Origin: Oculatellaceae cyanobacterium bins.114 | GTDB lineage: Bacteria; Cyanobacteriota; Cyanobacteriia; Elainellales; Elainellaceae | Assembly (NCBI GenBank): GCA_033764315.1 | Contig: JANRJA010000096.1 | Location: forward strand, 1 to 47,429 | Direction of reading: 5' to 3' | Length of the DNA: 47,429 nucleotides | Part shown: one piece after another, positions 11,455-44,604 of the stretch | How positions within the stretch are numbered: the stretch's first letter is position 1 | Layout: each line of letters starts with the position of its first letter | The notes under the pieces: generated by a model | Database searches by the model: none | Told to the model about the DNA's origin: nothing | What the model saw: the letters and a program-made list of their open reading frames with translations, nothing else | Made by a program: the position numbers and the translations under genes

Positions 11455-11564
11455 TCGGTTTTGGCTGAAACCCTGACTCATCTCATCCTCCCCTTAAATC
11501 CAGCCGCTATAGTGCCTCAGTTTAGTTACATCTTGCCGTATTCGTTTCACTCCTTTGTCTAGCC

Positions 11565-14500
11565 ATGACCCTCCGTATTCGTATTCTCTTGATGGTCACT
11601 TCCCTCCTTGCCGCAACGGTGTTGGTGACAACATTTGTGTTTGCCTGGGGAACTCGACGAGCGATGTTAATGCACACGGAAGAAGATGGAATTCGCACGG
11701 CTGAGTTTTTAGCCCGCATGACCCGCTTTAACGATCAGGCTCAAATTGATATAGAGCAAGTGATTGGAGAGCAGATGATTGTGCAAGCCACGATCGCCAG
11801 TCATATGGTCGCGATCGCAGAACAATCGGGAATGTCGTCAGAAGAACTCAATCAACGCTTGCGGGCGATCGCCGATACCACACCACTAGACGAGATTTGG
11901 ATTACCGACGAACAGGGGCATGCCTATCTCCACAACCTGCCCAATATCGACTTTACGTTTAGCCCTGATGCGACCCAACAACCTCAAGCAAGCTCTTTTT
12001 GGCCCCTGCTAACGGGTGACGCAACCGTGGTCAATCAACCCTTAATGCAGCGAGAGATTGACAATCGCTTCTTCAAATATGTGGGTGTAGCTGGGGTTGA
12101 CCAGCCGCGCATTGTTCAGGTGGGGTATGATGCAGCTCTGCTAGAGCGGTTTCGCCAACGGTTGGGGTTAGTTCGCATTGTCACAGAATTGGTGGATGGC
12201 AAACGCATCGTGGCTATTCGGATCATCGATCGCCAGATGAATAACCTGGCTCGTCATGTCACGGCTGGGTTACCCAACACCCAAAGTATGGATGACCCCA
12301 AGGATTTGGCAAACCTGCAACGGGTGATGAGTGAGGGCAAACCATTTAGCTATCTTGATGATTCAGTTGTCAAGGTGATGGTGCCCAACTTAGATGATCG
12401 AGGGGTGATCAGCGGAGCTACTGTCATCTATATCTCAACCCACGAGTTGCAACAAGAAATGCTGGGCGATTTACATCGAGCCGCGATCGCCTCTGCTCTA
12501 ATTTTGACGATAGGAGTCTTTGCTTCAATTTTCCTGGCCCGCCGAATTGCCCAACCCATCGCTCAGTTGACGTTGGCCGCAACGGCGATTCAAACCGAGC
12601 AATTTGATCCAGAGATGCTCAAACGAGCGACCACTGGCAAAGATGAATTAGGCTTGCTGGCACGAGTCTTTCAACGCATGGCGCGAGAAGTACGCGAACG
12701 AGAACAAGGGCTGATTCAAGCTAAGGAAGCCTTACACCGCAGTGAAGCTCACTTTCGGTCGCTGATCGAAAACGCCTCAGATGTGATTACGATTCTCAGT
12801 GCAGAAGGCACCGTTCAATATGGCAGTGCTTCGGTAAAAGCGGTGTTAGGGTACAACCCAGACGAGGTGATGCATCGCTCCATTCTGGAGTTTGTTCACC
12901 CCGATCAACAATCGGAAGTGATGGCGGCGTTTAATCGTGCCCTGGTCGAAGGAGGAGTTAGCTCACCTCTGGAGCTATGTCTAAAACACAAAGATGGCCC
13001 CTGGTTGATCTTAGAAGCCGTTAGCAACAATCTATTGCACGATAAAACGGTGGGTGGCATTATCGTCAATCTGCGAGATATCACCGAACGCAAGCAAGCC
13101 GAAGCCCTGCAAAAAGCAAAAGATATGGCTGAGCAAGCCAATCGGGCTAAGAGTCAATTTCTCGCCAACATGAGCCACGAACTCCGGACTCCGTTGAATG
13201 CCATCATTGGCTATAGCGAGATGTTGCAAGAAGAAGCTGAAGATACGGGACAGGATGGGTTTGTGCCCGATCTAAAGCGCATTCACACCGCTGGAAAGCA
13301 CTTGCTGGCGTTGATCAATGACATTTTGGACTTGTCTAAAATTGAGGCAGGCAAAATGGATTTGTATCTGGAACGGTTTGATATTTTGCAGATGATTCAA
13401 GATGTTGTCAGCACTATTCATCCGTTGCTTGAAAAGAATCACAATACTCTAGTGGTTGACTGCCCCGACTCTATTGGCACAATGTATGCTGACTTAACGA
13501 AAGTCAGACAAAATTTGCTAAATCTGTTGAGTAATGCGGCCAAGTTTACCAATCAGGGGACGGTTACTCTAAAGGTTTGGAAGGAAGGACAACCCCAACA
13601 CGAAGACGACAAGGTTAAGAGGGCAGGAGACTCTTTTGAATCTCGTCCCGTTACGTCGGTCATCTGGTTTCAGGTGTCTGATACCGGAATTGGGATGACA
13701 GCAGAACAGATGAGTAAACTGTTTCAGGCATTTACCCAGGCGGATGCCTCGACCACTCGCAAGTATGGCGGCACGGGGCTAGGGTTGGCGATCGCCCAAC
13801 GGTTTTGCCAGATGATGGGGGGTTCTCTAGAGGTTGAGAGCGTAGTCGATCAGGGAACTACATTCACAATGGTGTTGCCCGTTCAGGTGATGTCTCTTGC
13901 CCTTCCCCCGACACGAGTCACTGACCTACCAGACACCTTTGACGCGACCACCTCAAGCTCCCCAATTTTGGTGATCGATGATGACCCCACTGTGCATGAT
14001 TTAGTGAGACGCTTTTTGGTCAAAGAGGGGTTTCAGGTGTGCAGTGCCTTTGATGGAGAAGAAGGACTCCGATTAGCTAAAGAGTTACATCCGATCGCTA
14101 TCACGTTGGATGTGATGATGCCAGGAATGGATGGCTGGACAGTCCTATCCATGCTTAAAAATGATGTTGAATTGGCCGACATCCCTGTGGTCATGATGAC
14201 AATGGTGGATGACAAGAATATGGGCTACGCTCTGGGAGTCTCAGATTATTTGACAAAACCGATCGATCGCAGTCGCTTGATTAGCCTGCTCAGGCGGGTG
14301 CAGTGCGAAAACCCTCCTTGCTCAATCTTGGTGGTCGAAGATGACCTCGTCACCCGCGACATGATGCAACATATGCTAGAGCGAGAGGGGTGGCAGGTGG
14401 TGTTGGCAGAAAATGGTCGGGTTGCTCTAGAGCGGTTAGCTGAGACTCACCCTGAGTTGATCTTGCTCGACCTGGTGATGCCTGAAATGGATGGATTTGG

Positions 14501-14717
14501 CTTTATTGCAGAATTGCAAAAACGAGAGGAGTGGCGATCGCTGCCGGTGGTGATCCTGACGGCTAAAGATCTGACCCTCGACGATCGTCTCCGGCTCAAC
14601 ACCCACGTCGAGCAGATTCTCCAGAAAGGAGCGTATAGTCTTGAAGAAATACTTATTGAGATCCGTAGATTGGCAATAACGAGTCGTCCTAAGACTTGTC
14701 TCAACCCAATTACATAA
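11565..14717 (+). CDS. Membrane hybrid histidine kinase (Cache-like sensor-HAMP-PAS-HisKA-HATPase-REC-REC)
   Basis: Two TM helices; HAMP (ARRIAQPIAQL..DELGLLARVFQRM); PAS ending RDITERKQAE; H-box SHELRTPLN; two receivers. Confidence 0.92.
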   Translation: MTLRIRILLMVTSLLAATVLVTTFVFAWGTRRAMLMHTEEDGIRTAEFLARMTRFNDQAQIDIEQVIGEQMIVQATIASHMVAIAEQSGMSSEELNQRLRAIADTTPLDEIWITDEQGHAYLHNLPNIDFTFSPDATQQPQASSFWPLLTGDATVVNQPLMQREIDNRFFKYVGVAGVDQPRIVQVGYDAALLERFRQRLGLVRIVTELVDGKRIVAIRIIDRQMNNLARHVTAGLPNTQSMDDPKDLANLQRVMSEGKPFSYLDDSVVKVMVPNLDDRGVISGATVIYISTHELQQEMLGDLHRAAIASALILTIGVFASIFLARRIAQPIAQLTLAATAIQTEQFDPEMLKRATTGKDELGLLARVFQRMAREVREREQGLIQAKEALHRSEAHFRSLIENASDVITILSAEGTVQYGSASVKAVLGYNPDEVMHRSILEFVHPDQQSEVMAAFNRALVEGGVSSPLELCLKHKDGPWLILEAVSNNLLHDKTVGGIIVNLRDITERKQAEALQKAKDMAEQANRAKSQFLANMSHELRTPLNAIIGYSEMLQEEAEDTGQDGFVPDLKRIHTAGKHLLALINDILDLSKIEAGKMDLYLERFDILQMIQDVVSTIHPLLEKNHNTLVVDCPDSIGTMYADLTKVRQNLLNLLSNAAKFTNQGTVTLKVWKEGQPQHEDDKVKRAGDSFESRPVTSVIWFQVSDTGIGMTAEQMSKLFQAFTQADASTTRKYGGTGLGLAIAQRFCQMMGGSLEVESVVDQGTTFTMVLPVQVMSLALPPTRVTDLPDTFDATTSSSPILVIDDDPTVHDLVRRFLVKEGFQVCSAFDGEEGLRLAKELHPIAITLDVMMPGMDGWTVLSMLKNDVELADIPVVMMTMVDDKNMGYALGVSDYLTKPIDRSRLISLLRRVQCENPPCSILVVEDDLVTRDMMQHMLEREGWQVVLAENGRVALERLAETHPELILLDLVMPEMDGFGFIAELQKREEWRSLPVVILTAKDLTLDDRLRLNTHVEQILQKGAYSLEEILIEIRRLAITSRPKTCLNPIT

Positions 14718-14755
14718 ACACTTCTTAACAAAACGCAATTAATCGCAAAAAAGAA

Positions 14756-15133
14756 ATGTCTAAAATTCTCCTAGTCGAAGACAATGAAATGAATCGAGAT
14801 ATGTTGTCCCGACGACTTGAGCGCAAAGGACACCAAATCTTGATTGCAGTCGATGGTGAACAAGGAATTGTGATGGCACAATCAGAAATGCCAGATCTGA
14901 TTTTGATGGATATGAGTCTGCCCGTGCTAGATGGCTGGGCGGCCACTCGTCAATTAAAGGCATCTCCTATGACAAGTTCAATCCCAATCATTGCGTTAAC
15001 GGCTCATGCCATGTCAGGTGATAAAGAGAAATGCTTTGAGGCAGGTTGCGACGACTACGACACCAAACCCGTTGAGTTTGCTCGCCTTTTAGGAAAAATC
15101 GAGGCACTTTTGGAGCAACAGAAAGTTGTATGA
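14756..15133 (+). CDS. Single-domain response regulator (DivK-like)
   Basis: ILLVEDN, LILMD, IIALTAHAM and TKP motifs; 125 aa; stop overlaps the next start. Confidence 0.92.
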   Translation: MSKILLVEDNEMNRDMLSRRLERKGHQILIAVDGEQGIVMAQSEMPDLILMDMSLPVLDGWAATRQLKASPMTSSIPIIALTAHAMSGDKEKCFEAGCDDYDTKPVEFARLLGKIEALLEQQKVV

Positions 15134-16194
15134 AGCTTGACAGCGGGCAAGTTCTCGTTGTAGACGACAACGAGATGAACCGAGATCTCCTCTCTAAACG
15201 ACTACGCCGTCAGGGATTGACCGTCGTAATCGCTGAGAATGGGCGGCAAGCATTGTCAGAGATGCAAGCGCAGCCCTTTGATCTAGTGCTGCTCGACATT
15301 ATGATGCCAGAGCTAAATGGCTATGAAGTGCTAGAACAACTTAAAGCAGATCCTTTGCTGCGCCACATTCCCGTGATTATGATCTCAGCGTTAGACGACA
15401 TTGATAGTGTCGTGCGTTGCATCGAGTTGGGAGCCGAAGATTACCTGTTTAAACCCTTTAACCCCACTCTGCTGAAAGCCAGAATTAGTGCTTGCTTAGA
15501 GAAAAAGCGTCTGCGCGACCAGGAACAGGCTTATCTCAAACAATTGCAAGAAGAACAGGAAAAATCAGAGCGATTGTTGCTCAACATCTTGCCTAAAGCG
15601 ATCGCTGACCAACTCAAACAACACCAGCGCACCATTGCCGATAACTTTGCCGAAGTAACGGTGATGTTTGCCGATATTGTCAACTTCACTGAGTTGTCAT
15701 CACGTTTATCTCCGATTGAGCTAGTGAGTTTGTTGAACACGATCTTTTCTGCTTTTGATCATCTAGCCGAGCAGCATCAACTCGAAAAAATTAAAACCAT
15801 TGGCGATGCTTACCTGGTGGTGGGGGGGTTGCCCATTCCTCGACCCGACCATGCCGAGGCGATCGCAGAGATGGCACTGGATATGCAAGCGGCGATCGCC
15901 GCTCTCAACTTTGGGGAACTCAGCCTCAATAAACCCCTGACCATGAGAATTGGCATCAATACTGGACCTGTAGGAGCCGGAGTGATTGGCACCACCAAAT
16001 TTACCTATGATCTCTGGGGAGACACCGTCAACACCGCCAGTCGCATGGAGTCTCTAGGCTTGCCAGGTCAAATTCAAGTCACCGCTGACACCTACGAACG
16101 CCTCAAAGACCGATACCTATTTCAAAAACGAGGGGCGATCGATGTCAAAGGCAAAGGCGAAATGACCACCTACTTGCTGATTAGCAGAAAATAG
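15130..16194 (+). CDS. Receiver-regulated class III adenylate cyclase
   Basis: N-terminal REC, then VMFADIVNFT, KIKTIGDAY and YDLWGDTVNTASRMES. The Lys/Asp substrate-specifying pair indicates ATP rather than GTP. Confidence 0.92.
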   Translation: MKLDSGQVLVVDDNEMNRDLLSKRLRRQGLTVVIAENGRQALSEMQAQPFDLVLLDIMMPELNGYEVLEQLKADPLLRHIPVIMISALDDIDSVVRCIELGAEDYLFKPFNPTLLKARISACLEKKRLRDQEQAYLKQLQEEQEKSERLLLNILPKAIADQLKQHQRTIADNFAEVTVMFADIVNFTELSSRLSPIELVSLLNTIFSAFDHLAEQHQLEKIKTIGDAYLVVGGLPIPRPDHAEAIAEMALDMQAAIAALNFGELSLNKPLTMRIGINTGPVGAGVIGTTKFTYDLWGDTVNTASRMESLGLPGQIQVTADTYERLKDRYLFQKRGAIDVKGKGEMTTYLLISRK

Positions 16195-16199
16195 AGCCT

Positions 16200-17441
16200 A
16201 TGCAGGGTGATGCTTCATCCCACACTCCTGATCCAGCAGGAACAATTCAGATCAAAAATCACCCCTTCCCCTTTTTGCTCTATCTGGAATGGGGATTGGT
16301 GGTGCTCGCTATTCTCAGTGAGTTTTTGCCTGCTCCGGTGTCTCGCCTGTCTCGCTATCCTGTCTTAACAATTGCGAGTATTGCCATTTTTGGCTTGATG
16401 GGGTTGCGTCTACCCACAAAACGTCCTCTGACAAAAGTGGCTTACACTTTAGTGGAATTGGGACTCATTATCTTAGCCACTACCACAGGCTTGCGAGGGT
16501 TGCGGTTGTTTCCCTTTCTCTATTTGGTGCTGGTGAGTCGCAGTTGTTTGATCTTTAAACTGCCGGGACGATTGCTCGTTTCTGGGGTAGCGTTTGTCCT
16601 ATTTTTTCTGATTTTGGTCTATCGAGTCAGATCCCTGGTGCTACAATTGCCGACCGTGGTTGCAGAAAGGTTTCGCCCTCTGGTTTGGGGGTTTGCCATC
16701 AATTCAGTTTTGTTGTTTGGCTTGGCGTTGGTGTTTGTGCTGTTGTTAGTCAATGCCCTGATTGCTGAACGCCAGAGCCGTGAAAAGTTGGCGATCGCCA
16801 ATGATCAATTGCGAGAGTATGCCCAGAAAATTGAGAATTTAGCGGCTGTCCAAGAGCGCAACCGCATTGCCCGCGAGATTCACGACTCTTTGGGACACGC
16901 TCTGACAGCACTCAACATTCAACTTGAGGGAGCCTTAAAACTATGGCAGGCAAACCCTCAAAAAGCCCGAACATTTTTGCAAGATGCTAAACAACTCGGC
17001 TCAACAGCTTTGCAAGAAGTGCGTCAATCCGTTACCACTCTGCGGTCTGATCCGTTGCGAGGGCAGTCACTATCAGAGGCGATCGCCCAGCTCAGCAACG
17101 ACTTTTATAGAACGACTGGAGTTCAACCTCGTTGTCAGATTCAGTTGACACAAGCTCTCTCTAGTGAGATCAACACTACGCTCTATCGCATCATTCAAGA
17201 AGCTTTGACTAACACTTGCAAGCATGCAGATGCGACTACCGTTGAGATTCAAGTGCGTACCACTCCAACTCAGGTGCAATTAACCTATTACGACAACGGC
17301 AACGGCTTTCAAGTGAACCAAAACCAAACCGGATTTGGCTTGCAGGGAATGCGCGAACGCGCGTTAGCCTTAAAGGGACAATTCACCTTTAATAGTTCAC
17401 CCGGACAAGGGGTTCGTCTTAGTGTTCATATTCCTTTGTAG
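16200..17441 (+). CDS. Membrane HisKA_3 (DesK/NarX-type) sensor histidine kinase
   Basis: About five TM helices; ERNRIAREIHDSLGH H-box; QEALTN, DNGNGF and GFGLQGMRER motifs. Confidence 0.92.
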   Translation: MQGDASSHTPDPAGTIQIKNHPFPFLLYLEWGLVVLAILSEFLPAPVSRLSRYPVLTIASIAIFGLMGLRLPTKRPLTKVAYTLVELGLIILATTTGLRGLRLFPFLYLVLVSRSCLIFKLPGRLLVSGVAFVLFFLILVYRVRSLVLQLPTVVAERFRPLVWGFAINSVLLFGLALVFVLLLVNALIAERQSREKLAIANDQLREYAQKIENLAAVQERNRIAREIHDSLGHALTALNIQLEGALKLWQANPQKARTFLQDAKQLGSTALQEVRQSVTTLRSDPLRGQSLSEAIAQLSNDFYRTTGVQPRCQIQLTQALSSEINTTLYRIIQEALTNTCKHADATTVEIQVRTTPTQVQLTYYDNGNGFQVNQNQTGFGLQGMRERALALKGQFTFNSSPGQGVRLSVHIPL

Positions 17442-17751
17442 CCATAAGCATGGGTTGAGTAAAAGCCGTAAGGGAAATATTGTCCATCACCATAGCAATG
17501 GACAAAGGTTCAATGTAGAGCTTGTAAGGGATGCAGGTGAAGTGCTTGCCCTCTTGACGTTGGAGCGATCGGATATTCAACCTGAACGAGAAACCCTGCG
17601 AGAGCAAGTTCTGGCAATTCTGAATTCTTTACCTGAAGACTTAATTGCAGAAGTGAGAGACTTTGCTGAATTTTTACAGCGACGAAAAGCAGGCTCAATA
17701 CTTAGGCGACGCTTCAATAAATATAAGCTGATTCCAAAGGTATATCCTTAG
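17442..17751 (+). pseudogene. 5'-truncated DUF4926-like / DUF2281-like fusion remnant
   Basis: KHGLSKSRKGNIVHHHSNGQRFNVELVRDAGEVLALLTLERSDIQP resembles the C-terminal part of DUF4926, and LNSLPEDLIAEVRDFAEFLQRRK resembles DUF2281. There is no credible start, and similarity begins right after the kinase stop. Confidence 0.55.
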
Positions 17752-17989: not shown

Positions 17990-18934
17990 CTAACGAATTG
18001 TGAGCAGATAGCGCCCTAAACCCGTATGGTCATATGAATTTACTATAACCCTATATCTACCAGTATATGGAAGAGTAATTACCATCTGGGAATTGGTATT
18101 GCTGCCATTAATATCATCATTCTCCCCAATGTTTTGACCATTTTGAGTGTATAGAAGAAGGTAAGTATCAAAGTCTGAACTAGATAAGTTAATTACTACA
18201 GATTGACCAGCACTGCCTTGGAAATAGTACTCATCATAAGAGCTACCATCGTTCAAAATAGGATCATTTCTGGTTAAAGCTCCACGTTCCTCTAGGATGA
18301 ATCTTTGTTGGCTTGATGGGGGTGATGTCTGATTTGTGTCTTGCCAAAACGCATTCAGTGAAATGAAGTTTTGCCTATCACTTGGACTACTCAAACCTAC
18401 ACGATCTGAAAAGGACTGGCGACATTGTTGCTCAAAACTCTCATACTGCAACCTTGTTAGATCTGTATTTCCAAACTGTCGCAGTAAATTACCCGCGAAA
18501 GCTGGTACAAACAAGCATCCTTGAAGCTCATTTTGAAACGTCAATAACAAATCATTAGTTCTACAAAAACCTTGTTGCTGATTTTGTGGATTAGTCGCAA
18601 CACAAAGTACCGGTTGGTTGTTGATATAACTGAAGGTTAAACCATAAATTAAATTCTCCCCATAGGTAACTAAAGCATTTTGGAATCTCTGAGATACAGC
18701 CCTACAACGTGCTAATGGCGTAGAATAAGGTGGGGGTGTCCAAGCAGAGGTGAAAGTAATAAAGTCAAATCTTTGACGATTGCTAAATAATGCCATTACG
18801 GGTGGATTCCGGCTTTCATCGCAGTAAAAGTATTCAGCAGTTGATTGCGCTACAGCTTGTTCACGATGAAAAAAAGAAATATTAAAACTTGAAAAACCAA
18901 GAAGCAACGTAATTGTAAATCGAAATAATTTCAC
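17990..18934 (-). CDS. Secreted COP23-domain protein with C-terminal PPC (pre-peptidase C) domain
   Basis: Signal peptide ending AVA-Q. COP23-like pattern FYC..TPLARCRAVSQRFQ..INNQPVLCVA..C..LLLTF. PPC pattern YDEYYFQGSAGQSVVINLSSSDFDTYLLL..ENDD..TGRYRVIVNSY..GRYLLTI. GTG start with an upstream GGAG. Confidence 0.8.
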   Translation of the reverse strand: MKLFRFTITLLLGFSSFNISFFHREQAVAQSTAEYFYCDESRNPPVMALFSNRQRFDFITFTSAWTPPPYSTPLARCRAVSQRFQNALVTYGENLIYGLTFSYINNQPVLCVATNPQNQQQGFCRTNDLLLTFQNELQGCLFVPAFAGNLLRQFGNTDLTRLQYESFEQQCRQSFSDRVGLSSPSDRQNFISLNAFWQDTNQTSPPSSQQRFILEERGALTRNDPILNDGSSYDEYYFQGSAGQSVVINLSSSDFDTYLLLYTQNGQNIGENDDINGSNTNSQMVITLPYTGRYRVIVNSYDHTGLGRYLLTIR

Positions 18935-18990
18935 AAGGAGACTCCCTATAACTTGAACTTAGAATATAAAGGCTCAAAAAGTTACATAAC

Positions 18991-21222
18991 CTAAACACAT
19001 GGAGGGGTCCTGCATATAGGGTTAACAGGTTGTCTTCTTCGCCTTCCTTCTTCTCTACGTCTAGCTGCCGCTGTTTCTTCTCTACGTCTAGCTGCCGCTG
19101 TTTCTTCTCTACGTCTAGCTGCCGCTGCTTCTTCTCTACGTCTAGCTGCCGCTGCTTCTTCTCTACGTCTAGCTGCCGCTGCTTCTTCTCTACGTCTAGC
19201 TGCCGCTGCTAACTCATCACTTGCCTGCTGAATTATAGAAGAAGCTTGCTGCTCCCAATAATTAGTGGTTACCTTGCTTGCTTCATCAATAGCTTGCTGC
19301 CATTGTTGTGAATCTATAGCTTCCTTAGCGACTTCAAGAGAGGCTTCGTTTTTTTCCCATTCTTGATTCCACTGTTCAATTTGCTCTAAAGTTCTAGTAT
19401 GCAAAGGGCTTCCCTCTGGGATCGCCTTTATCATCGCTATGGCTTCATCTAGCTTGCCTGACTGATACTGCTCTTGTGCTAATTGCAATATGCGGTTAGA
19501 CCATTGACTAATTAACTGGTTAGCCTGCTGATGTGCAGAATGCCCAGGCAATATCTCAGTTGCTATCGTAATTGCACGACTGTAACTACCTTCTTCAGCA
19601 AATTGTTGAGCTAAAGCAAGTTGACAATCTCCCAGAAGACCCTGAGCAGAACCATAAGCTTCAGTGTGACTTGATGAAATAGTCTTTGCCTTCTCAATAC
19701 ACTGTTCATAATTGCCTGACAATTTAAGTTCCCTCGCTTCAGAAGCAAGATTCTCAGCTTGAAGATAAGCTTGATGACGGTTTACTGAAATTGTCCCTAT
19801 TATCAAACCAATAATTACAAGTAACCCTCCTACCCCAGTGAATAACCATACTTTGCGTGCAAGAATACTTTTCCTTCTAATATTTGGAGAGGGAAATACT
19901 GATAAAGAATTAGAAATATTTTCAGAAACTTCAGCATTACTATAAGTAGTTTTCACCTCATTTGAAGGGGGCTTAATTGATCCAGTTGAGACGATTGTAG
20001 ATTGAGGAGAATTGGAGGATAGTATTGTCGGTAACGCGTTTATATTGCTTAATTCAACAGCATTTCTATCTGTAGAGACAACCGTTGGATTTGGAACTCC
20101 GAACGATGTATCAACACTAGACATTTCCTTATCTGCAGGAGCTGATGAAACAACTGTAGATTGAGGATTAGATTTAAACGTTTCTTCAGTAGGCCTAGAA
20201 TCTTTGGCAAGCGACGAAGAAACAATTGTTTCAGAATTATCGAATTTCTTGACGGGGTAAATATTATTTATAGGTTGATTAGATTGGTTAGATACATGTG
20301 TAGGTCGCAAGTTTGTTACTGATTGATTTAACTGCTCATTGAAAGTATGAGATTGAGACAAACTTGTGTACTCACCATCTACAAAAACTGTCCTTTTTTT
20401 CGCAAGAAGTAACTGAAGATCCGCTAATACATCCTGAGCTTCTTGATATCGTTCTCTGAAATGGTAACGTACCATTCGATCAATAATATTTGCAAGTTCG
20501 TCTGTACAATTTGCCCACGCGCTCCAAACAAGTTCACCTGTTTCTGGATCTTCTTGTAGTTGATTAGGCAGCAAGCCTGTTAAAGCTTGAATGCAAATAA
20601 TGCCTAAAGAGTAAATATCACTATTTGGACGAGGTTTCCCCCGTCCCTGCTCAGTTGGCATATAACCTGGAGTTCCAGCTACAATTGTTGTTGTAGGTTG
20701 TCCATGTAATAGAACTTGTTTAACTGTTCCAAAATCTACTAAAACAATTTTGTTGTCGCTATCTCGACGAATTAAGTTATCAGGTTTAATGTCTCTATGT
20801 ATTACACCGTTTTTATGAATAAAAGCCAATATATTTAAGACTTCACAAAGTAACTTATAAACTAATACTTCGTCCCATTTATGCCCAGGTTTCAACTCAT
20901 AGGTAAGTGTATGCCCACCAATTAGCTCTTGAACCAAGTAAAAGTCTTGATTCTCATCAAAATAAGCCAGCAGTTGCGGAATTTGGTTATGCTTGCCTAA
21001 TTTCTGTAAAGTCTCGGCTTCATTAAGAAATAACCGTTTTATATTCTCGAATTGCTTTAAATTATCACTTCCTGGTGGTTTAAGATGTTTGACTACGCAA
21101 TGAGGATTACCTGGAAGACGAATATCTTCAGCAACATAGGTTCGTCCAAAACCACCCTCTGCTAAATTCTGAATTATTCTGTAACGCCCATCTAATAATT
21201 CACCAAACCTAAGTACCTTCAT
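18991..21222 (-). CDS. Membrane-spanning Hanks-type Ser/Thr protein kinase with extracytoplasmic TPR-like region and repeat tail
   Basis: Likely start MKVLRFGELLDGRY (ATG 21222). Kinase motifs GGFGRTY, VVK, HRDIKPDN, DFG and GTPGYM. S/T-rich linker, TM VWLFTGVGGLLVIIGLIIGTI, and (AAARRREEA/T)x6. Confidence 0.9.
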   Translation of the reverse strand: MKVLRFGELLDGRYRIIQNLAEGGFGRTYVAEDIRLPGNPHCVVKHLKPPGSDNLKQFENIKRLFLNEAETLQKLGKHNQIPQLLAYFDENQDFYLVQELIGGHTLTYELKPGHKWDEVLVYKLLCEVLNILAFIHKNGVIHRDIKPDNLIRRDSDNKIVLVDFGTVKQVLLHGQPTTTIVAGTPGYMPTEQGRGKPRPNSDIYSLGIICIQALTGLLPNQLQEDPETGELVWSAWANCTDELANIIDRMVRYHFRERYQEAQDVLADLQLLLAKKRTVFVDGEYTSLSQSHTFNEQLNQSVTNLRPTHVSNQSNQPINNIYPVKKFDNSETIVSSSLAKDSRPTEETFKSNPQSTVVSSAPADKEMSSVDTSFGVPNPTVVSTDRNAVELSNINALPTILSSNSPQSTIVSTGSIKPPSNEVKTTYSNAEVSENISNSLSVFPSPNIRRKSILARKVWLFTGVGGLLVIIGLIIGTISVNRHQAYLQAENLASEARELKLSGNYEQCIEKAKTISSSHTEAYGSAQGLLGDCQLALAQQFAEEGSYSRAITIATEILPGHSAHQQANQLISQWSNRILQLAQEQYQSGKLDEAIAMIKAIPEGSPLHTRTLEQIEQWNQEWEKNEASLEVAKEAIDSQQWQQAIDEASKVTTNYWEQQASSIIQQASDELAAAARRREEAAAARRREEAAAARRREEAAAARRREETAAARRREETAAARRREEGRRRRQPVNPICRTPPCV
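19048..19209. repeat. Coding tandem repeat, 6 x 27 bp
   Basis: TTCTTCTCTACGTCTAGCTGCCGCTG[T/C] starts at 19048, 19075, 19102, 19129, 19156 and 19183, with no spacers. Confidence 0.97.
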
Positions 21223-21362
21223 AAGACAAGTTTCTAAAAAATGAATTTCTTTAAAGTTTTGAAGACAAAAAGGGAAAGATCTAATCCAATGCCTTTGCAA
21301 CAGGTACCGCAATTTATAAGAATTTTGCAGAGAATCTGTAAAGCAGATTCTCTGCAATTCAA

Positions 21363-23057
21363 TTAAGTTGAGTGTTCGCCTGTTTTCGCTCGTGCAGAAT
21401 CCTGTGCACGGCTTCTATCAGAGGGATTAAAATAAGTTAAAGTCACTTGGTTGCGTGGATCATCACCAATAGTAAGTTTATCCTCATCATGAAGCAAATA
21501 CCCCTCATTCTTAGAAATCTCTATTCCATCTATACGAGTTTTATTTGTGCTTCCTTTCAAACGGTCTCCATCATAAATACGGTAATTCTCACCATCTTTA
21601 TATAGTGTTGCGTGACATTTGGAAATAACTTCCCATCCTGCATCAGGAACACATAAATCTGCCCAATTTGGATCCCGTCCAAGCTTATGTTGGTTATTTT
21701 GAAGGTAGAACCGTTTAATTTGTCCCTGGTGGTTTCTTACCTCTAAAAAGGGCTGAAAACTTACTACAGTTTCTGGGCGAAAAAGTTTAGTTACTGCCCG
21801 AGGTATGTTTGTCCAAGCATCTGCTCTTGAACTAAATTCCTCCGCTTGAGTTAGTGTGGTTGACGTACTTGATGCTGACTCTACTTGCACAAGAGGGGCA
21901 TACCTTCGTCTACCTAGTAGATAAGCTATGAGCAGTAGAATGACAATTGAAATTCCAGCTATAAACCAAAGTGTGTAGCTTCTTTTATCCCATGCTTCAG
22001 CAATTTTTTGTTCACTAGCTCTAATTAGCTTAGAAACTTCTGAGTGTTGTGGAAATAACCCCTGAACTGCCAAAAATTTTGCCTTCGCCCCTTCCCAATC
22101 CCCTCTCCAGTAAAGTTTCAATCCTTCTTGGTACAAGGCTGTGGTCGTGCTTACCTCGTTACTAGCTCCCGACTGCCTGATATATTCCTGTATAGTGCTG
22201 GTGGGTATAGCAAAAGGAAAGCTAGTTTCTTCATCTACTGCACCTCCACCGAAGGTTATCATACCAACCACTTCACCATTTTGATTTAATACAGGACTCC
22301 CAGAACTTCCAGGCGCTACAGTTGTGCTAATTTGCAATACAGGGGCGTTATCCTGCAGGGTTTTACTTGTATTTGAAACTTGACCTTGCAAAACAGATGC
22401 TTCAAAAATTGATTTGTCACTTAATGCAGAGATCACATCTGCCGTATTCGGATATCCAATCACAATGATTGAATCTTGAAGCTGAACCTGTCTAGACTCA
22501 CCTAATTTAAGTACAGGCGCATTTGTAACTTCAATCTTTAACACTGCTACATCTTTACCACCACCACCAACAGGTGTTCCAGATTGCTTGACATCAAATC
22601 GGAAAGTCTCTCCATTGGGTAAAATTACGACGTCTGCATAATTAAATTCTTCCAGTTCTGCCCGTTGTTTGATATTCTATATTCGTGATTCAGATAACTT
22701 ACTCAAATCTCGCTCGCCAGTTAACTTTTGAACAAGATTCTCAAACAGTCTTTGTTTACAAGCGTCCTCACCGCCTTTAGCTGGTTCTACAACATGGGCA
22801 TTCGTAACGATATAACCGTTTGGATCAACAAAATAACCTGTACCAGCTGAGGCATGGGAAAATGGATACTCAGTCACGTATGAGCTATTCTCTGGTTGAT
22901 AATAGTAGGTGCCATAACAACCAGCCAAAATACGAACGACAGCAGGTTTAGAATACATCGACAACTGCTGCTCAGGTTTAGGTTCCGTCTTTTGAAAAAA
23001 TGGAAACTGAATAAGAACCAGAGCTTGAGTAAGGTATAAAGCAAGACGCTGAAGCAT
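21363..23057 (-). pseudogene. Trypsin-like serine protease-TM-FHA protein interrupted by one in-frame TAG (22677-22679)
   Basis: ORFs 22677..23105 and 21363..22544 are in the same frame, and the gap reads *NIKQRAELEEFNYADVVILPNGETFRFDVKQSGTPVGGGGKDVAV. Catalytic triad TNAHVV / KDVAVL / GSSGSP. TM helix, then FHA motifs LGR..ISKCHA..STNKT. Likely ATG at 23057. Confidence 0.87.
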
Positions 23058-23416
23058 GGATGGGGCTCTCCAGACAACGATATAGATGACACAAAATTTA
23101 CACAACTATCTCGAACAGTTGATAAAGTCTAGTCCAGCTATCTGTAAAAACAACTTGAATCAGTAATAAATACTAAAATTTGATCACTTTATTCTGTACT
23201 TGCCCTACAAATGATTAAATTTTACGTTTGCTTACCATAGAACTAAGCAGGGCAGCATTAGTTTATAGGCATGTCAACCAGTACTAAGAGCTAATTTATA
23301 AAGTAAATCCTTAAATAAATCGCCTCTAAATATAAGCATTATTTTAATATGGTGTCTAGAATATTTATTTAATAAATTTAAATATAAGCAACATAATATT
23401 GTTTCTGGACTGGCAA

Positions 23417-23459
23417 ATGTATCAAAAAATACATCTACTTGATATCCTAATTATACAAT
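23417..23459 (+). promoter_or_regulatory. NtcA-type activated promoter upstream of the TIR gene
   Basis: ATGTATCAAAAAATACAT (23417-34) contains GTA-N8-TAC with 6-bp palindromic arms. A TACAAT -10 box (23454-59) follows 21 nt after TAC. Confidence 0.6.
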
Positions 23460-23549
23460 TCCTCAATATTATGATTATGAGGATAAGTCCTTCCATAACA
23501 TTGGCTTTAAGCTATTAGTCAATTCTTGCACAATGTATAAAGGACAGTT

Positions 23550-24566
23550 ATGAGTGTTTCTTCCAACTCTCAGCCAATGAGGACTACTGAGGTATTCTTT
23601 TCTTATTCTCATAAGGATGAGGGCCTACGAGATGAACTTGCAACGCATCTCAGCATCCTCCGGCGACAAGGTGTGATTAGTGCTTGGTACGACCGCCAAA
23701 TAACACCCGGAACAGAGTGGGCTGGAGAAATAAACACACATCTAAATTCATCTGAGATTATTCTTTTATTAATTAGCCCAGACTTTCTTGCATCGGATTA
23801 TTGTTTTGATATTGAGTTAAGAAGAGCGATGGAAAGGCATGAAAGGGGTGAAGCCCGGGTTATTCCAATTATTCTTCGCCCAGTAGACTGGCAAGGCGCT
23901 TCTTTTGGAAAGTTGCAAGCTTTGCCTAAAAATGCAAAGGCTATTACTCTTTGGGACAATCGAGACGAAGCTTTTAGAAATGTTTGCGAGGGAATTCGCA
24001 TTGCCATCAAAGATTTTCGTCGATTCTCTGGTTTCAAATATTATTCTGAAGTTGCATTCTCGCCTCAAGATGTTTATGGAAAAACATTAAACGATGGGAG
24101 CTCTTCATTCTCCCATAACGTGGAAAAGAGGAAAAAGTCTAATTTAAAATCAAGTATCAGATCGAGTAATTCAACAAGAAACGTAAGTTTTTCTACTACT
24201 ATCTCTTTCATCAAGAAAAATCTGATCATTCTTTTAATGATCCTTTTGATATGGCTTCTTATCGGATTTCTAAGTCAACAGGATATTAGTATTGCTGACA
24301 AACCTATTGCCATGCTCTCTTTCGGTTTACTGGGCGGTCTTGGTAGTGGTTTTCTTGGAGCTTTAGCATGGAAACAATATTTCCATGCTTCTAGAGATAT
24401 GTTAGTTCCACAAACACTTATTGGTGGGTTTGCTGGTAGTTTGCTTTGGTGTTTGTTAGGACTCTCACTTCAGGATTCTGTGCTGAGAAGTTCAGGACAT
24501 ATAGTTGGGCTATTTTCAGGATTTTTAATAATAACTTTTTTGCTATTAAGTGTATTGAACAAATAG
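23550..24566 (+). CDS. TIR-domain protein with about four C-terminal TM helices
   Basis: VFFSYSHKD, WYDRQITPG and LLISPDFLASDYCFDIEL (conserved Glu retained), followed by hydrophobic Gly-rich helices. Confidence 0.9.
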   Translation: MSVSSNSQPMRTTEVFFSYSHKDEGLRDELATHLSILRRQGVISAWYDRQITPGTEWAGEINTHLNSSEIILLLISPDFLASDYCFDIELRRAMERHERGEARVIPIILRPVDWQGASFGKLQALPKNAKAITLWDNRDEAFRNVCEGIRIAIKDFRRFSGFKYYSEVAFSPQDVYGKTLNDGSSSFSHNVEKRKKSNLKSSIRSSNSTRNVSFSTTISFIKKNLIILLMILLIWLLIGFLSQQDISIADKPIAMLSFGLLGGLGSGFLGALAWKQYFHASRDMLVPQTLIGGFAGSLLWCLLGLSLQDSVLRSSGHIVGLFSGFLIITFLLLSVLNK

Positions 24567-24770: not shown

Positions 24771-25854
24771 AGTAGCTAGGACTAATTAAATATAAGATGA
24801 TATAGACCCTGTAAACGGAATGTTTCATCTATTTATGCCTGCTCCCATTCGGATTATTTTGAGCGAACTGCGGGTTGCCCAAACCGTATCACAACGAACA
24901 CGTGACCGTGCCCATATGATTCGCTTAAATGCCCGAGGGTGGAACGTGCCTGCGATTGCTGAGATTTATCAGTGTCATGAGCATACCGTGAGAGCGACGT
25001 TGCGACGCTGGCAAGCAGGAGGATTAAGCGGGTTATGGGAAGCACCAGGGCGAGGAGCAAAAGCCAGTTGGAGTGAAGCCGACAAGCAACTAGTGGAAAC
25101 CTGGATTGAGAGCGCCCCTCAAACCTACAACAGCACGCAACTTGCTCGTAAACTGCAACAACAACGGCAAATTAAGCTCTCACCCGATTGGATTCGACGA
25201 GTGATGAAAAAAAGGGCTTCCGCTGGAAACGCACCCGTCACAGTCAGCGAAACAAACAGGACGTGTTCAACAAGCAATCTAAGCAAGCAGACCTAGAACT
25301 ATTGCAGCAAGCCGCACAAGACCAACCTATTGAGCTGAAGTATTTAGATGAATCAGGCTTTTGCCTGTGGAGTCCAGTCAGCTACAGCCGCATCGGAACA
25401 CAGAAATGTATCAAGCAGACCCAGTTAGCATTTTGGGGCTTTGGCAACCCGATGAACACTTCGAGTATGCACTGGTGCAAGGAGGCTTTAAGAGTGCAAG
25501 TTACATTAGCGTGATGGATTGGGTCGCTGCAACAGCCGCCCAAACACTCAAACAAACAGGACGGCTCACGGTTATTGTTCAAGACAATGGATCGATTCAC
25601 ACCAGTAAACTCGTCCAGCAACAGTGGGGACGGTGGCAAGAGCAAGGATTATTCATTTTCTTTTTGCCTGCCTATTGCTCGCAGATGAACCCCATCGAAG
25701 GACAGTGGCATCAACTCAAAGCTCATGAAATCTCAGGACGAATGTTCGACAATGAATATGATTTAGCCCTTGCTGTAATGGACGGTATAGAATCCCGAAG
25801 TGAACAAGGTGGGTATACGCTGGAACGTTTTAAGTTTAAATCCTCCTAGCTACT
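24771..25854 (+). mobile_element. IS630-family insertion sequence (decayed)
   Basis: Terminal IRs AGTAGCTAGGA (24771-81) / TCCTAGCTACT (25844-54), with further imperfect matches inward. Flanking TA at 24769-70 and 25855-56. Encloses transposase frames. Confidence 0.92.
24835..25849 (+). pseudogene. IS630 transposase (HTH plus DDE) split over three frames
   Basis: HTH frame MPAPIR..; an A7G slippery run at 25207-14 leads in -1 to KKGFRWKR..YLDESG; a second frameshift near 25425 leads to SILGLWQ..VQDNGSIH..NPIE. Confidence 0.85.
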
Positions 25855-26191: not shown

Positions 26192-27889
26192 TTAGCCCAC
26201 AAAATCAACTGGCTGATAAAAAGTATTTGAAAAAGCAAAACTAGAACGAAGAAGCTGGTTGGCCCGAACCCCTATTAATAGAGCCAACGGCTCACCACCT
26301 AACTGAACGGTGGTATTGCGTCCTGATTGAACTAGCCTTAACCCTCTAAAACTCGTGCTTTTGGGTAAGCCCAAATAATCTTGACCGATCTGGAAATCAG
26401 TAATAACGTCTAACCCTTCTCTACGTCTCAATCCAAAAATGTCCTTTCCAGCTCCACCCGTGAGGCGATCGCTTCCTAACCCACCGATCAACACATCATC
26501 CCCAGTTTGACCCACGATAAAATCATTGCCCTGACCCCCCAGTAATCGATCATTGCCGCGATCGCCCACAATACGATCATTATCATTGCCGCCATCGATC
26601 CAATCAATTAAACGAGTGCCAGTCAAGCGATCGCGGTTCTTGCTTCCTCGAATCACCCCAACACCTTCAAACGCGCCGATATCAGTGCCAGATCCGATCG
26701 GGCGAAGCGTTCCTACAATGTCTCGACTGGTTAAACCGTTAATTCCTCTATTCAGGGCAGGGCTATTGGAGCGTAGTGCAAAGTTGCCTATGCTTGGATC
26801 TAAAAATAGTGGGTCAACACCAATCAGATCATTGGCTCCAGTTTGGGTATAGAGCACAGAATTAAACAGCAAATTGTAGTCAAACAAAATGTTGCTTGAG
26901 TTGGAGACTTTGTTCGCTGGTTTTCCTGAGGTGGCACTCATGATGTTGTTTAACACGCGCACATCATTGGCAGTGCCTACGGTAATCTCTCCACCATCGA
27001 TCGCTGGATGTTGTGAGTTTTGATAAGTTGTGTTGTTAACAATATCTACAAAATTACTGCTATAAACATTGATACCCCGACCTCCGTTGTTATACGAAAG
27101 ATTGTTCTCAACCAACGTTCGTCCTTGATAAACCCCAAGCGTAGAGTTGTTTTGAGTATTGCGAGTATCATCAACAATAATGCCATTGCCATCTGTCACC
27201 CTGCCAACCTGAAACCAGGGAATTAAATTTTGATTGTTATACGTGACGTTACCCCGGATGATCATCCTATAGCCACTTGAGCTATCAGAGTTCCAGTTTT
27301 GGTAATTGGAAATCCCACTATTACCGTAGGGAGCATACCAGGCATTGTTGTAAACAAGATTGTTTTCGATAGTGACGTAGTCTGCGTGGTAGGTATAGAT
27401 GCCACCACCACCAAACTTATAGACTTCATTATTGCGAATCACAATGTGATGTGGATAAGTTGGGGTCGCATCATCAGAGGGTCTAATCCCAATGCCATTG
27501 CCTGATGTTAAGGGATTGCCTAGATTATTTTGCTCAGCGATCGCTTGTGGCAAGGTGATGTTGTCGTTGTTTCCCTGCAATTCAAACCCGTCGATAATAA
27601 TATGGGATGCACCCAGAATTGCAAAAGCATGCCAATTGTTGGAAACAAGCTTGGGGTTAGCCCCAGGATAGGCTTGATAAGTGATCCAGGCATCAGCAGT
27701 GCCAGAACGAGTAATGCGGACAATATCGCTGTTTGGGTTACTGGCAGTGTAAGTGCCATTCATCACGTAGACGATATCTCCCGGTTGAGTTAAATTGGCG
27801 GCTGTTTGAATATTGCGGAAGGGAGTTTGAGGTGTTAATCCATTGTTGTTGTCGCTACCTAAACCCGAAATGTAATAAGTCGTTGTCAT
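26192..27889 (-). CDS. Right-handed beta-helix (pectate-lyase-like) protein with C-terminal RTX Ca-binding repeats, copy A
   Basis: YYISGLGSDNN..PFRNIQTAA N-terminus, repeated IxNNxxYNN coils, DIGAFE motif, GGxGxD nonamers, no signal peptide. Confidence 0.85.
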   Translation of the reverse strand: MTTTYYISGLGSDNNNGLTPQTPFRNIQTAANLTQPGDIVYVMNGTYTASNPNSDIVRITRSGTADAWITYQAYPGANPKLVSNNWHAFAILGASHIIIDGFELQGNNDNITLPQAIAEQNNLGNPLTSGNGIGIRPSDDATPTYPHHIVIRNNEVYKFGGGGIYTYHADYVTIENNLVYNNAWYAPYGNSGISNYQNWNSDSSSGYRMIIRGNVTYNNQNLIPWFQVGRVTDGNGIIVDDTRNTQNNSTLGVYQGRTLVENNLSYNNGGRGINVYSSNFVDIVNNTTYQNSQHPAIDGGEITVGTANDVRVLNNIMSATSGKPANKVSNSSNILFDYNLLFNSVLYTQTGANDLIGVDPLFLDPSIGNFALRSNSPALNRGINGLTSRDIVGTLRPIGSGTDIGAFEGVGVIRGSKNRDRLTGTRLIDWIDGGNDNDRIVGDRGNDRLLGGQGNDFIVGQTGDDVLIGGLGSDRLTGGAGKDIFGLRRREGLDVITDFQIGQDYLGLPKSTSFRGLRLVQSGRNTTVQLGGEPLALLIGVRANQLLRSSFAFSNTFYQPVDFVG

Positions 27890-27973
27890 AGTGACTTAAG
27901 ATGCAGCAAAAACAACATAAAATTAGACGAGACAGCCCTGATTTAAGTTTCAGGTCTAGCTCAAATCGGTGCA

Positions 27974-28113
27974 TTATCTCGGTGCATTATCAAAGGCACG
28001 AGCGATCGCATTCCATTCCAATTTACGATGCATGTTTTCGTCAAGTGGCAACGGACGCCCAGCTAACCCATCTCACCAGCGTTCAAGGTTTAATAACCAG
28101 GTGTGGCGATCGC
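27974..28113 (-). pseudogene. Duplicated, decayed 3' end of the GH10 gene
   Basis: Translates as DRHTWLLNLERW*DGLAGRPLPLDENMHRKLEWNAIARAFDNAPR*, versus DRYTWLSEFEPRTDGLPVRPLPLDENMNRKLAWNAIARAFDQAPA in the GH10 gene (about 30150-30283). Confidence 0.9.
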
Positions 28114-28148
28114 GCTCTAGCATTTATAGAAGTAGCTATAGCAAAGGC

Positions 28149-28182
28149 TATACCCAGTAAAGCATTTGCCCTACTGGGTATA
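28149..28182 (-). terminator. Long hairpin after beta-helix/RTX copy B
   Basis: 11-bp perfect arms TATACCCAGTA / TACTGGGTATA. The inner stem extends by G-U pairs only in the minus-strand RNA. Lies about 30 nt past the stop at 28211. Confidence 0.6.
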
Positions 28183-28210
28183 ACTCAATGTTCAAGATAA
28201 CTGTACGAAG

Positions 28211-32515: not shown

Positions 32516-32531
32516 ATAAACTCCTGTGGAT

Positions 32532-33647: not shown

Positions 33648-33718
33648 GTCTCAATCATCAAGAAATTAGCAACTTATTCTCTAATTAGGAAGTCTATATT
33701 GATGGTTCCTATTTTTAT

Positions 33719-34732: not shown

Positions 34733-34808
34733 TTAGAGTATTCATTATTTTTTAAGTATGATATATCGAAATTGAGTAGCTACTCTTGAGGAATTTAGTA
34801 GAGTATCC

Positions 34809-36056: not shown

Positions 36057-36069
36057 GAATTATAGAAAA

Positions 36070-37158: not shown

Positions 37159-37189
37159 AATTTCGCCTCTAAACAATGTGACAAAGTAA

Positions 37190-38434: not shown

Positions 38435-38533
38435 AAAGATACCTTAACTAACTAATTTGGCAATAGTTTAAGTAAAAGGTAGAAGCCCTCATTTCTAATA
38501 TCTTGAATTGACTTATGTTATATGATGATGACA

Positions 38534-39172: not shown

Positions 39173-39243
39173 GAGTTTAAGTCTCCAGTAACGGTTGCAC
39201 TATGTGTTAACTACATTTGAGTTAGATATGAAAAGTTTTCTAC

Positions 39244-40677: not shown

Positions 40678-40774
40678 TTAGAGAATTCTCTTGTGAAAAC
40701 AATCGTTTATTTTGACAATAGTAGAATTGAATTAACTGATTTTTTATCCTCCGTTTTTAATGGCGAGCAATGCT

Positions 40775-41722: not shown

Positions 41723-41794
41723 GTTATCTTGCCTCTCTCAAGGCATTTACACATCAACGAACAAGAATTGGTTAACACACTCAATTGCGCTCTA

Positions 41795-43459: not shown

Positions 43460-43523
43460 TTACCCTCCAGTTAAAACTAGTCAAATCCAATGCATTTAAT
43501 TTGCTCAAATTGTTTACCTCTCC

Positions 43524-44570: not shown

Positions 44571-44604
44571 AACTAAATTTGAGTATTGCCTATGAGCACT
44601 TAAG

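Follow-up and report, generated by a model that had tools for sequence, protein, structure and literature searches.

We analyzed a window of 47,429 bases, the entire contig C58 of the 251-contig, 6.6 Mb draft genome (G000) of Oculatellaceae cyanobacterium bins.114, and describe in it a four-gene region (positions 17990-24566) that appears to encode a membrane-spanning signaling system. The genes encode a protease joined through a transmembrane (TM) helix to an FHA domain (hereafter PF, for gene and protein alike), a Hanks-type Ser/Thr kinase (STK), a TIR protein ending in a glycine-rich four-helix membrane module (4TM), and an exported COP23-PPC protein. We lean toward the reading that the region is a copy of a three-component membrane system found in filamentous cyanobacteria, rare and horizontally moving, with a sensor-effector role in conflict or cell death. 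COP23-PPC, the kinase, and PF lie on the minus strand, and the TIR-4TM gene diverges from PF on the plus strand. An original prediction, made from this sequence alone, had placed four genes here; all are present, but the protease-FHA gene is interrupted and is read as two in-frame open reading frames (ORFs). Its outline of three co-oriented genes with complementary topology and a divergent TIR-4TM gene fits the hydropathy and charge distribution of the four proteins.

PF, the kinase, and 4TM are genetically linked. PF is directly followed by a same-strand kinase gene in 14 of 14 cyanobacterial loci: the window, G001, G013, G014, G024, G576 (locus L035, contig G576:C161), L025, L031, L149, G215, G601, G657, G857, and G915 (L026 and L027 are contigs of G013 and G014). 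A 4TM gene lies within a few kb in 12 of the 14, the misses being the short contigs L025 (4.5 kb) and L149 (7.6 kb). Among 40 relatives, full-length PF occurs only in G024, G014, G013, and G001, each time with a kinase of the same ectodomain directly after it; scans of public genomes and metagenome contigs added L025, L031, L035, and L149. The reverse test, a search of family f22 with the 4TM profile alone, picked out 5 of 389 genomes, and all five have full-length PF and kinase within 6 kb. Gene order in f22 is PF, kinase, periplasmic binding protein, and then the 4TM gene, convergent; in G915 a second kinase lies beyond the 4TM gene, and the binding protein comes after it. In family f1, where 25 genomes were searched with both queries, five have PF and 4TM, and 20 have neither. 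The 4TM profile is rare overall, with matches in 4 of the 401 genomes sampled from the phylum (two of these weak) and in 7 of 57 genomes of the order. The co-location expected of all four homologues was thus borne out for PF and kinase in every locus and for 4TM in 12, but neither the TIR head nor COP23-PPC is constant.

The gene divergent from PF carries interchangeable heads. It encodes a CHAT protein in G024, G014, and G576 and a caspase in G001 and L031, and the C-terminal parts of these proteins align with the membrane half of the window TIR protein. Heads on 52 representative 4TM proteins comprise 13 TIR, eight CHAT, five caspase, five EAD8, two EAD9, and one kinase; the remainder are one sub-threshold TPR_2 match, one probably false PG_binding match, and 16 proteins with no recognized N-terminal domain. 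G601, G857, and G915 show EAD-coupled recruitment, with an EAD8-CHAT gene directly upstream of an EAD8-4TM gene, whereas the window TIR is fused directly; G013 has a CHAT-coiled-coil gene followed by a coiled-coil-4TM gene, the two products having a common ETDPxxKFKL motif. These paired EADs and the common coiled-coil motif indicate, at the level of sequence, that 4TM is a platform holding effectors that are either fused to it or recruited. A TIR output was therefore only part of the picture: the TIR-4TM protein is present here, but TIR is one of several heads, alongside CHAT, caspase, and EAD8/EAD9. The His/Cys dyads of the CHAT and caspase heads are kept, and catalytic or binding residues are conserved in all parts of the module.

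The swap extends to congeners. G000 and G001 have TIR and caspase heads, respectively, and COP23-PPC and WD40 accessories; their PF proteins are 39% identical and lie at different loci. The G001 module sits on a separate contig, in a context separate from that of the window locus, and the flanking genes of G000 and G001 have 77-80% DNA identity. The G001 caspase head scores 175 bits with the NCBIfam model “caspase, EACC1-associated type” (cut-off 140); no separate small gene was seen in the 397-bp gap between caspase gene and PF, in a comparison made without an EACC1 model. The one kinase-headed representative, P0026, has a PknB-like kinase domain, only 30% identical to the window kinase, fused directly to a 4TM-like module, and is a possible fusion link between kinase and platform.

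PF (21363-23057, minus strand) consists of a signal peptide, an S1 protease (Pfam Trypsin_2), a TPR-like hairpin, a TM helix, and a cytoplasmic FHA domain. The catalytic triad is complete, with His in TNAHV (aa 88), Asp in GKDVAV (aa 169), and Ser in GSSGSP (aa 252), and the three motifs are kept across 12 sequences from three phyla, as in the S1 chymotrypsin fold. The N-terminus is hydrophobic, and the TM helix (aa 363-381) is followed by RRR and then by the FHA domain, so that the protease would lie outside and the FHA domain inside. The FHA domain (Pfam FHA, 4.2e-10) has the motifs LGRD, SKCH, and STNK, and its residues G468, R469, S487, H490, and N513 are invariant in the 12 sequences; with these conserved phospho-threonine-loop residues it is a predicted phospho-threonine reader. 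No PDZ domain was matched in Pfam scans. PF does not fall within HtrA/DegP/DegS by NCBIfam score, with 77 bits against a cut-off of 450 for HhoA/HtrA and about 44 against 408 for DegS. Matches to the FHA domain alone, in open frames of about 800 aa, proved to be FHA-FHA-ABC transporters unrelated to the module.

The window copy of PF carries an in-frame TAG at codon 127 (22677-22679, minus strand), inside the protease domain. This single codon splits the gene into in-frame ORFs at 22677-23105 and 21363-22544: a piece of 142 aa, which has the catalytic His, and one of 393 aa. Both Asp and Ser of the triad lie after the TAG, the Asp ahead of the first start codon available to the second piece. 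The architecture anticipated for this protein, an exported trypsin-like protease with a TM helix and a cytoplasmic FHA domain, is recovered by Pfam and hydropathy, though with a nonsense codon rather than in one ORF. Over 560 columns the interrupted protein is 62% identical to the intact L149 protein and has no frameshifts; the TAG aligns with D or E of the orthologues, and 11 of 11 aligned cyanobacterial orthologues are uninterrupted. An alternative genetic code was considered and rejected, TAG being the terminator of seven of the 29 long ORFs in the window. The alignment points to either a very recent inactivation or an artifact of the draft assembly.

The kinase gene (18991-21222, minus strand) encodes a Hanks Ser/Thr kinase domain (Pkinase 2.2e-33; 116 bits against a cut-off of 31.7), a disordered linker of ~190 aa, one TM helix, and a helical-repeat ectodomain. 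Its likely start, by alignment of orthologues, is the ATG at 21222, giving 743 aa; the ORF is open up to a TTG at 21357. K45, H142-R143-D144, and D163-F164-G165 are invariant in seven orthologues, as in Hanks-type kinases. RRKSILARK precedes the TM helix (aa 460-478), and therefore the kinase domain is placed inside and the ectodomain outside. The ectodomain has two Cys invariant in the seven orthologues and is modeled by AlphaFold2 as all-helical repeats (pLDDT 89). Foldseek against the PDB returned weak TPR-type matches, BamD and LapB, at E 7e-3 and worse; the proposed cytoplasmic kinase, TM helix, and exported repeat region are thus all recognizable, with the likeness to TPR weak. The extracytoplasmic tail contains a 27-bp tandem repeat (19047-19210, minus strand; 6.1 copies, 98% matches in Tandem Repeats Finder) that encodes (AAARRREE)n. 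Tails of orthologous kinases are rich in Ala, Gln, Arg, and Glu, and that of G020 has another repeat. Three kinases with a COP23-PPC neighbor have a terminal Cys pair in the tail, and the tail ends in GW..R..[RK][LI] in four aligned kinases with a WD40 neighbor; this covariation of tail and accessory is suggestive, in a sample that is small and phylogenetically confounded.

The linkers of both the kinase and the effectors are disordered and rich in Ser and Thr. The motif T-[VILM]-[VILM]-[SA], mostly after Pro, was counted 18 times in kinase linkers, where shuffled sequences would give 2.3, and also stands just before the FHA domain of PF, where the Thr is conserved in 11 of 12 PF proteins. Both patterns are suggestive, and these sites are candidate phospho-acceptor or FHA-docking sites. 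Between the PF stop codon and the kinase start, a terminator-like scan found a hairpin with a perfect 14-bp stem (21325-21357, minus strand), which could be an attenuator or an RNA processing site.

The divergent TIR-4TM gene, confirmed as predicted, occupies 23550-24566 (plus strand) and encodes 338 aa. Its cytoplasmic TIR domain (aa 13-163; 23586-24038, plus strand) matches TIR_2 at 3.3e-18 (66.8 bits against a cut-off of 28), and Glu89 is at least 90% conserved in 13 TIR-4TM representatives. In the AlphaFold2 model, a disordered linker (aa 162-211) connects a TIR fold (aa 13-163) to a confidently predicted helical bundle at 214-337 (mean pLDDT 78); the best PDB fold matches of the model are all TIR domains. 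By fold and catalytic-type Glu the domain is thus a TIR-domain enzyme, with predicted NADase or signal-synthase activity. The PADLOC ThsB1 model matches at 5e-60, over model positions 2-146 of 319, the TIR part. Four hydrophobic segments follow; six Lys/Arg precede the first, and the outer loops are acidic, a charge pattern from which both ends of the protein, including the TIR domain, are placed in the cytoplasm.

The membrane half (aa 224-336; 24219-24557, plus strand; alignments A1 and A3 and hydropathy) has invariant Trp and Gly in its four helices, in the pattern W..G / G..G...G / G...G...W / G...G...G. A search of 1.84 billion proteins with a profile of it retrieved 53 representative relatives, in all of which the module is C-terminal. 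Of these, 52 were scanned for domains, a 4601-aa match being left out, and the 4TM part matched no Pfam family apart from a sub-threshold DUF1129 match in P0017. The profile likewise has no detectable likeness to any named family; Foldseek of the bundle against the PDB gave no match, and look-alikes in the ESM Atlas (≤0.77, structural TM-scores ≤0.51) were uninformative. From these alignments 4TM is the constant part of the effector gene, and a previously unnamed module. The profile matches in G327 and G366, weak and with no recognizable heads, are doubtful relatives.

The fourth gene (17990-18934, minus strand) encodes a 314-aa protein with COP23 (PF14218; 2.5e-14, 53.6 bits against a cut-off of 27) and PPC (1.3e-6, 29.6 bits against 25.9) domains and a signal-peptide-like N-terminus, in agreement with the secreted COP23-PPC protein first proposed, and it belongs to the COP23 family by score. 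Its place as a constant member of the module did not survive comparison: COP23-PPC is found in 3 of the 14 PF loci (the window, G013, and L149), and also follows the orthologous kinase in G020, a genome with neither PF nor 4TM. Full-length orthologues come only from G013, G020, and L149, a metagenome locus, and in all three the gene immediately upstream encodes an orthologous kinase. Other loci have other accessories, all with export signals: an exported WD40 propeller in G024, G014, G576, G001, and L031, and a Peripla_BP_6 protein in all five f22 loci. COP23-PPC thus looks to be an optional periplasmic accessory of the kinase, outside the core. Ahead of the kinase/COP23-PPC pair of G020 lies a gene for a 1195-aa protein (L142 12656-16243, minus strand) that combines a TPS secretion domain with a CHAT domain at its C-terminus.

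The PF architecture also occurs outside cyanobacteria, in Acidobacteriaceae, Kofleriaceae, and Pyrinomonadaceae-like soil bacteria. In Acidobacteriaceae, the genes after PF encode a small FHA protein, a PP2C phosphatase, and two kinases; in Kofleriaceae, PF often overlaps the downstream kinase gene. The 4TM gene was found in none of the non-cyanobacterial loci examined. Because PF and kinase occur together there and 4TM does not, PF and kinase are the older pair, and the 4TM effector platform is a cyanobacterial addition.

The composition of the region sets it apart. GC content over 17990-24566 is 0.387 against a genome mean of 0.4765, and only 0.11% of 890 genome windows of 6.5 kb reach so low a value; no stretch of the genome is lower in GC than this 6.6-kb segment. 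GC at third codon positions is 0.25-0.31 in the four genes and 0.43-0.53 in the immediate flanks. The claim that the four genes sit on one compositional island therefore holds, more strongly than when it was made. On the left, a two-component gene cluster is syntenic with the congener G001 at 77-80% DNA identity and ends exactly at 17434, where the low-GC segment starts. The G001 counterpart of the right flank is located elsewhere in that genome, and for this reason the empty-site comparison with G001 could demonstrate no clean insertion.

How might such a system work? Induced proximity or oligomerization is what turns on TIR, CHAT, and caspase enzymes alike. Since the three kinds of head have this in common, the simplest model to unite them has the constant machinery govern how the platform clusters. 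The constant parts would be PF, a Hanks kinase with a long Thr-rich linker, membrane anchor, and extracytoplasmic sensor, and the 4TM platform. Outside the membrane the variable parts would be either a TPR-like ectodomain paired with COP23-PPC or with WD40, or else a periplasmic binding protein; inside, they would be TIR here and CHAT or caspase elsewhere, attached by fusion or by way of paired EAD8 or coiled-coil adaptors. The kinase would be activated by a cue from the envelope or periplasm; phospho-Thr on the juxtamembrane linkers would be bound by the FHA domain of PF; and this binding would gather PF, kinase, and 4TM platform into clusters. Clustering would fire the effectors, with NAD+ cleavage or signal production by TIR and proteolysis elsewhere, and in the filament the attacked cell would stop growing or die. 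That proteolysis outside is coupled to phosphorylation inside is inferred from the protein architectures. The periplasmic protease probably cuts the sensor, the accessory, or loops of the platform in a step that would license or reset the response, and its role is the least clear part of the model. The function served is probably conflict or programmed death. A bolder version, that this is a new class of transmembrane immune receptor complex in which periplasmic sensors act through kinase and FHA-protease on clustered 4TM death enzymes, we put forward only tentatively.

Several observations weigh against the system and mechanism proposed here. Loci within one family are kin, and our counts overstate their independence; in addition, neither PF nor a kinase lies close to the weak 4TM-profile matches of G327 and G366 (E ~1e-5). 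PF can do without a neighboring kinase: in a wider set of 80 full-length PF genes, a same-strand kinase lies ≤4 kb downstream in only 23 (16 of the 80 had <1.5 kb of downstream DNA), and in none of the Pyrinomonadaceae-like ones. No PP2C phosphatase was seen in the cyanobacterial loci, and the flanks in most relatives are housekeeping genes, not defense islands. The Thr motif of the linkers was defined post hoc, from the sequence of the window itself; none of the five f22 kinases has it, and neither does that of G020. Finally, the nonsense codon in the protease gene means that the window copy may be inactive or crippled.

Several other explanations were considered. An envelope-stress or developmental signaling system, in which kinase, FHA domain, and protease would watch over cell wall or periplasm and whose effector would serve programmed death, filament breakage (necridia, hormogonium release), or signaling rather than immunity, would account for the housekeeping genes that mostly flank the module, for accessories that are ligand-binding periplasmic proteins such as Peripla_BP_6, for the resemblance of the closest non-cyanobacterial pairings (Acidobacteriaceae) to classical kinase/PP2C/FHA housekeeping clusters, and for the fact that all sampled carriers are cyanobacteria of large-genome families. 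A core developmental pathway should, however, be wider and more stably inherited than one found in 4 of 401 genomes of the phylum, 7 of 57 of the order, and 5 of 389 of f22. Effector swaps within a genus, atypical GC, and EAD8/EAD9 domains, typical of conflict systems in excerpts of Kaur et al. (2020; PMC7159879), argue the same way, and we consider a developmental role unlikely, although it deserves to be taken seriously. Less probable again is a protease-activated pore, in which a toxic glycine-zipper 4TM would be released or unlocked by a CHAT, caspase, or S1 cut in the linker or a loop and the kinase and FHA domain would only gate the cut. Its models are gasdermin and EACC1, the latter a small membrane protein with a glycine-rich helix that, in excerpts of Kaur et al. 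(2020; PMC7159879) and of a preprint (Evans et al., 2025), forms a pore after caspase cleavage. The G001 caspase head passes the EACC1-associated cut-off (175 versus 140 bits), the 4TM helices have invariant GxxxG-type glycines, and disordered linkers join heads to 4TM. Against a pore, the most frequent head is TIR (13 of 52), which is not a protease; EAD8/EAD9 heads imply recruitment of a partner rather than self-cleavage; and the 4TM profile resembles no named family.

Two further alternatives concern the window itself. The four genes may have arrived together by horizontal transfer and then decayed, the nonsense codon inactivating the system and the rest drifting or acting independently. 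This would concern the window copy only and is compatible with our explanation of the family. The in-frame TAG in a protease domain whose aligned orthologues are all intact, the IS630-type element next door, the foreign GC, and the 98%-perfect tandem repeat expanded in the kinase tail make decay a real possibility, but there is a single lesion without frameshifts, full-length identity to the intact L149 protein is 62%, the other three genes remain intact and keep their catalytic residues, and in a 251-contig draft the TAG may be a base-calling or population-consensus artifact; we therefore judge a relic possible rather than probable. That the TIR-4TM protein is a Thoeris-type ThsB sensor, with ThsA elsewhere and unrelated signaling genes beside it, seems very improbable. 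The PADLOC ThsB1 match is strong (5e-60), and the genome holds at least 10 further TIR paralogues (≤68% identical). The match is limited, however, to the TIR part (2-146 of 319), no SIR2, Macro, or SLOG domain was found in the 32 window ORFs scanned, and the membrane half accompanies PF and kinase in 12 of 14 loci, whatever the head.

The surroundings of the module are varied. An AT-rich intergenic region (23058-23549) is common to the divergent PF and TIR-4TM genes, and promoter-like matches in it are no commoner than in shuffled sequence. Beside the TIR gene, flanking the module on the right, lies an IS630-type transposase (24820-25849, plus strand) in two ORFs, HTH (24820-25296) and DDE_3 (25361-25849; both Pfam), which could be a frameshifted or broken copy. 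Farther right are two RTX/beta-helix proteins (26192-30022, minus strand) and then a polysaccharide synthesis and export cluster (30114-46818, minus strand) with GH10, glycosyltransferase, Wzy-like, flippase, Wza-like, and Wzc-like genes, some of it low-GC too. The left flank (3989-17441, plus strand) is a large cluster that encodes hybrid histidine kinases and response regulators, together with a response-regulator adenylate/guanylate cyclase; a small DUF4926 ORF (17422-17751, plus strand) overlaps the end of its HisKA_3 kinase gene, where the flank gives way to the non-syntenic, low-GC segment. Elsewhere in G000, contigs C209, C141, C246, C228, and others carry the further TIR paralogues and four matches to the G001 caspase head, of the type passing the EACC1-associated model, which suggests a large repertoire of conflict-type proteins in this genome.

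Neighbors of the module in f22 also differ. In G857 it adjoins a type I restriction R subunit (L236 4087-7416), and in G601 a Uma2-family putative endonuclease (L233 7409-7996). An alpha/beta-hydrolase gene diverges from PF in three of the five f22 loci (L109 827-1795, L234 3084-3977, and L236 15976-16974); in L109 an SLH-domain gene lies between it and PF. Alpha/beta-hydrolases figure as protease-activated effectors in excerpts of a recent preprint (Evans et al., 2025), and those of f22 may be another output or simply inherited synteny.

We suggest that the value of the system lies in where it would place the sensor. TIR and caspase-like immune effectors of bacteria have so far mostly been found with cytoplasmic sensors (STAND NTPases, CBASS cyclases, Thoeris). 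If our reading is right, such effectors can also come under an extracytoplasmic sensor and FHA-read Ser/Thr phosphorylation, a logic otherwise familiar from eukaryotic innate immunity; the bolder version would make it a prokaryotic analogue, built of different parts, of the receptor-kinase-to-TIR and receptor-kinase-to-caspase pathways of animals and plants. The loci also give a first context to the protease-TM-FHA architecture (present in at least three phyla), to the unnamed 4TM module, and to COP23-PPC proteins as would-be kinase accessories. With only three or four genes, natural sensor and effector variants, and clear point mutants, the hypothesis is directly testable. The original prediction knew of no precedent for this combination, and a search of published full texts likewise found no description of it; the supplementary tables of Kaur et al. 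(2020, 2021) may list such architectures.

The closest comparison is with the conflict systems of multicellular bacteria, which, in excerpts of Kaur et al. (2020, PMC7159879; 2021), join a constant core to swappable TIR or caspase heads and EAD adaptors, around NTPase cores or EACC1. The module resembles those systems, as they appear in parts of the 2020 paper, in its TIR, caspase, and CHAT-type peptidases, its EAD8/EAD9 domains and paired EADs in adjacent genes, its constant component with variable heads, its occurrence in filamentous cyanobacteria, and the EACC1-associated type of its G001 head. It departs from them, over the same parts of that paper, in its constant components, which here are 4TM, a Hanks kinase, and PF, with no NTPase core and no EACC1 gene seen in the loci examined; FHA and kinase domains are sporadic and effector-side in the systems that these excerpts of Kaur et al. 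cover. The NTPase-core ternary systems (MoxR-vWA-VMAP, iSTAND, GAP1-GTPase) are not matched, as no AAA+/MoxR, vWA, STAND, or GTPase genes lie beside the window module, and the loci of relatives lack such genes too; the only exceptions are a ClpB in G001, which is unrelated, and a VWA gene in L031. Neither PADLOC nor NCBIfam has a model for PF, 4TM, or the whole system, and the kinase's many PD-T4-6 matches reflect its kinase domain only.

Individual parts resemble other known systems. Like Thoeris ThsB, the window protein has a TIR fold, a conserved catalytic-type Glu, and a strong PADLOC ThsB match; unlike in Thoeris, its TIR is fused to 4TM and interchangeable with peptidase heads, and the scanned window ORFs contain no ThsA-type domain, which sets the locus outside Thoeris. 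PF is reminiscent of DegS/HtrA and MarP in its chymotrypsin fold, His-Asp-Ser triad, membrane tether, periplasmic placement, and sub-threshold NCBIfam likeness; it differs in having no PDZ domain, a TM helix that is C-terminal and followed by a cytoplasmic FHA domain, and NCBIfam scores far under the cut-offs.

The nearest parallels to the signaling logic are the threonine-phosphorylation pathway of Pseudomonas type VI secretion, with kinase PpkA, Fha1, and PppA, and mycobacterial PknB with FhaA/FhaB. In both, as in our model, a membrane Hanks kinase with an extracytoplasmic sensor acts through a phospho-threonine-reading FHA domain on the assembly of a membrane machine. The cyanobacterial loci differ from these in having no secretion-system genes and no phosphatase; their FHA domain is instead fused through the membrane to a periplasmic S1 protease, and their output would be a TIR, CHAT, or caspase enzyme held on 4TM.

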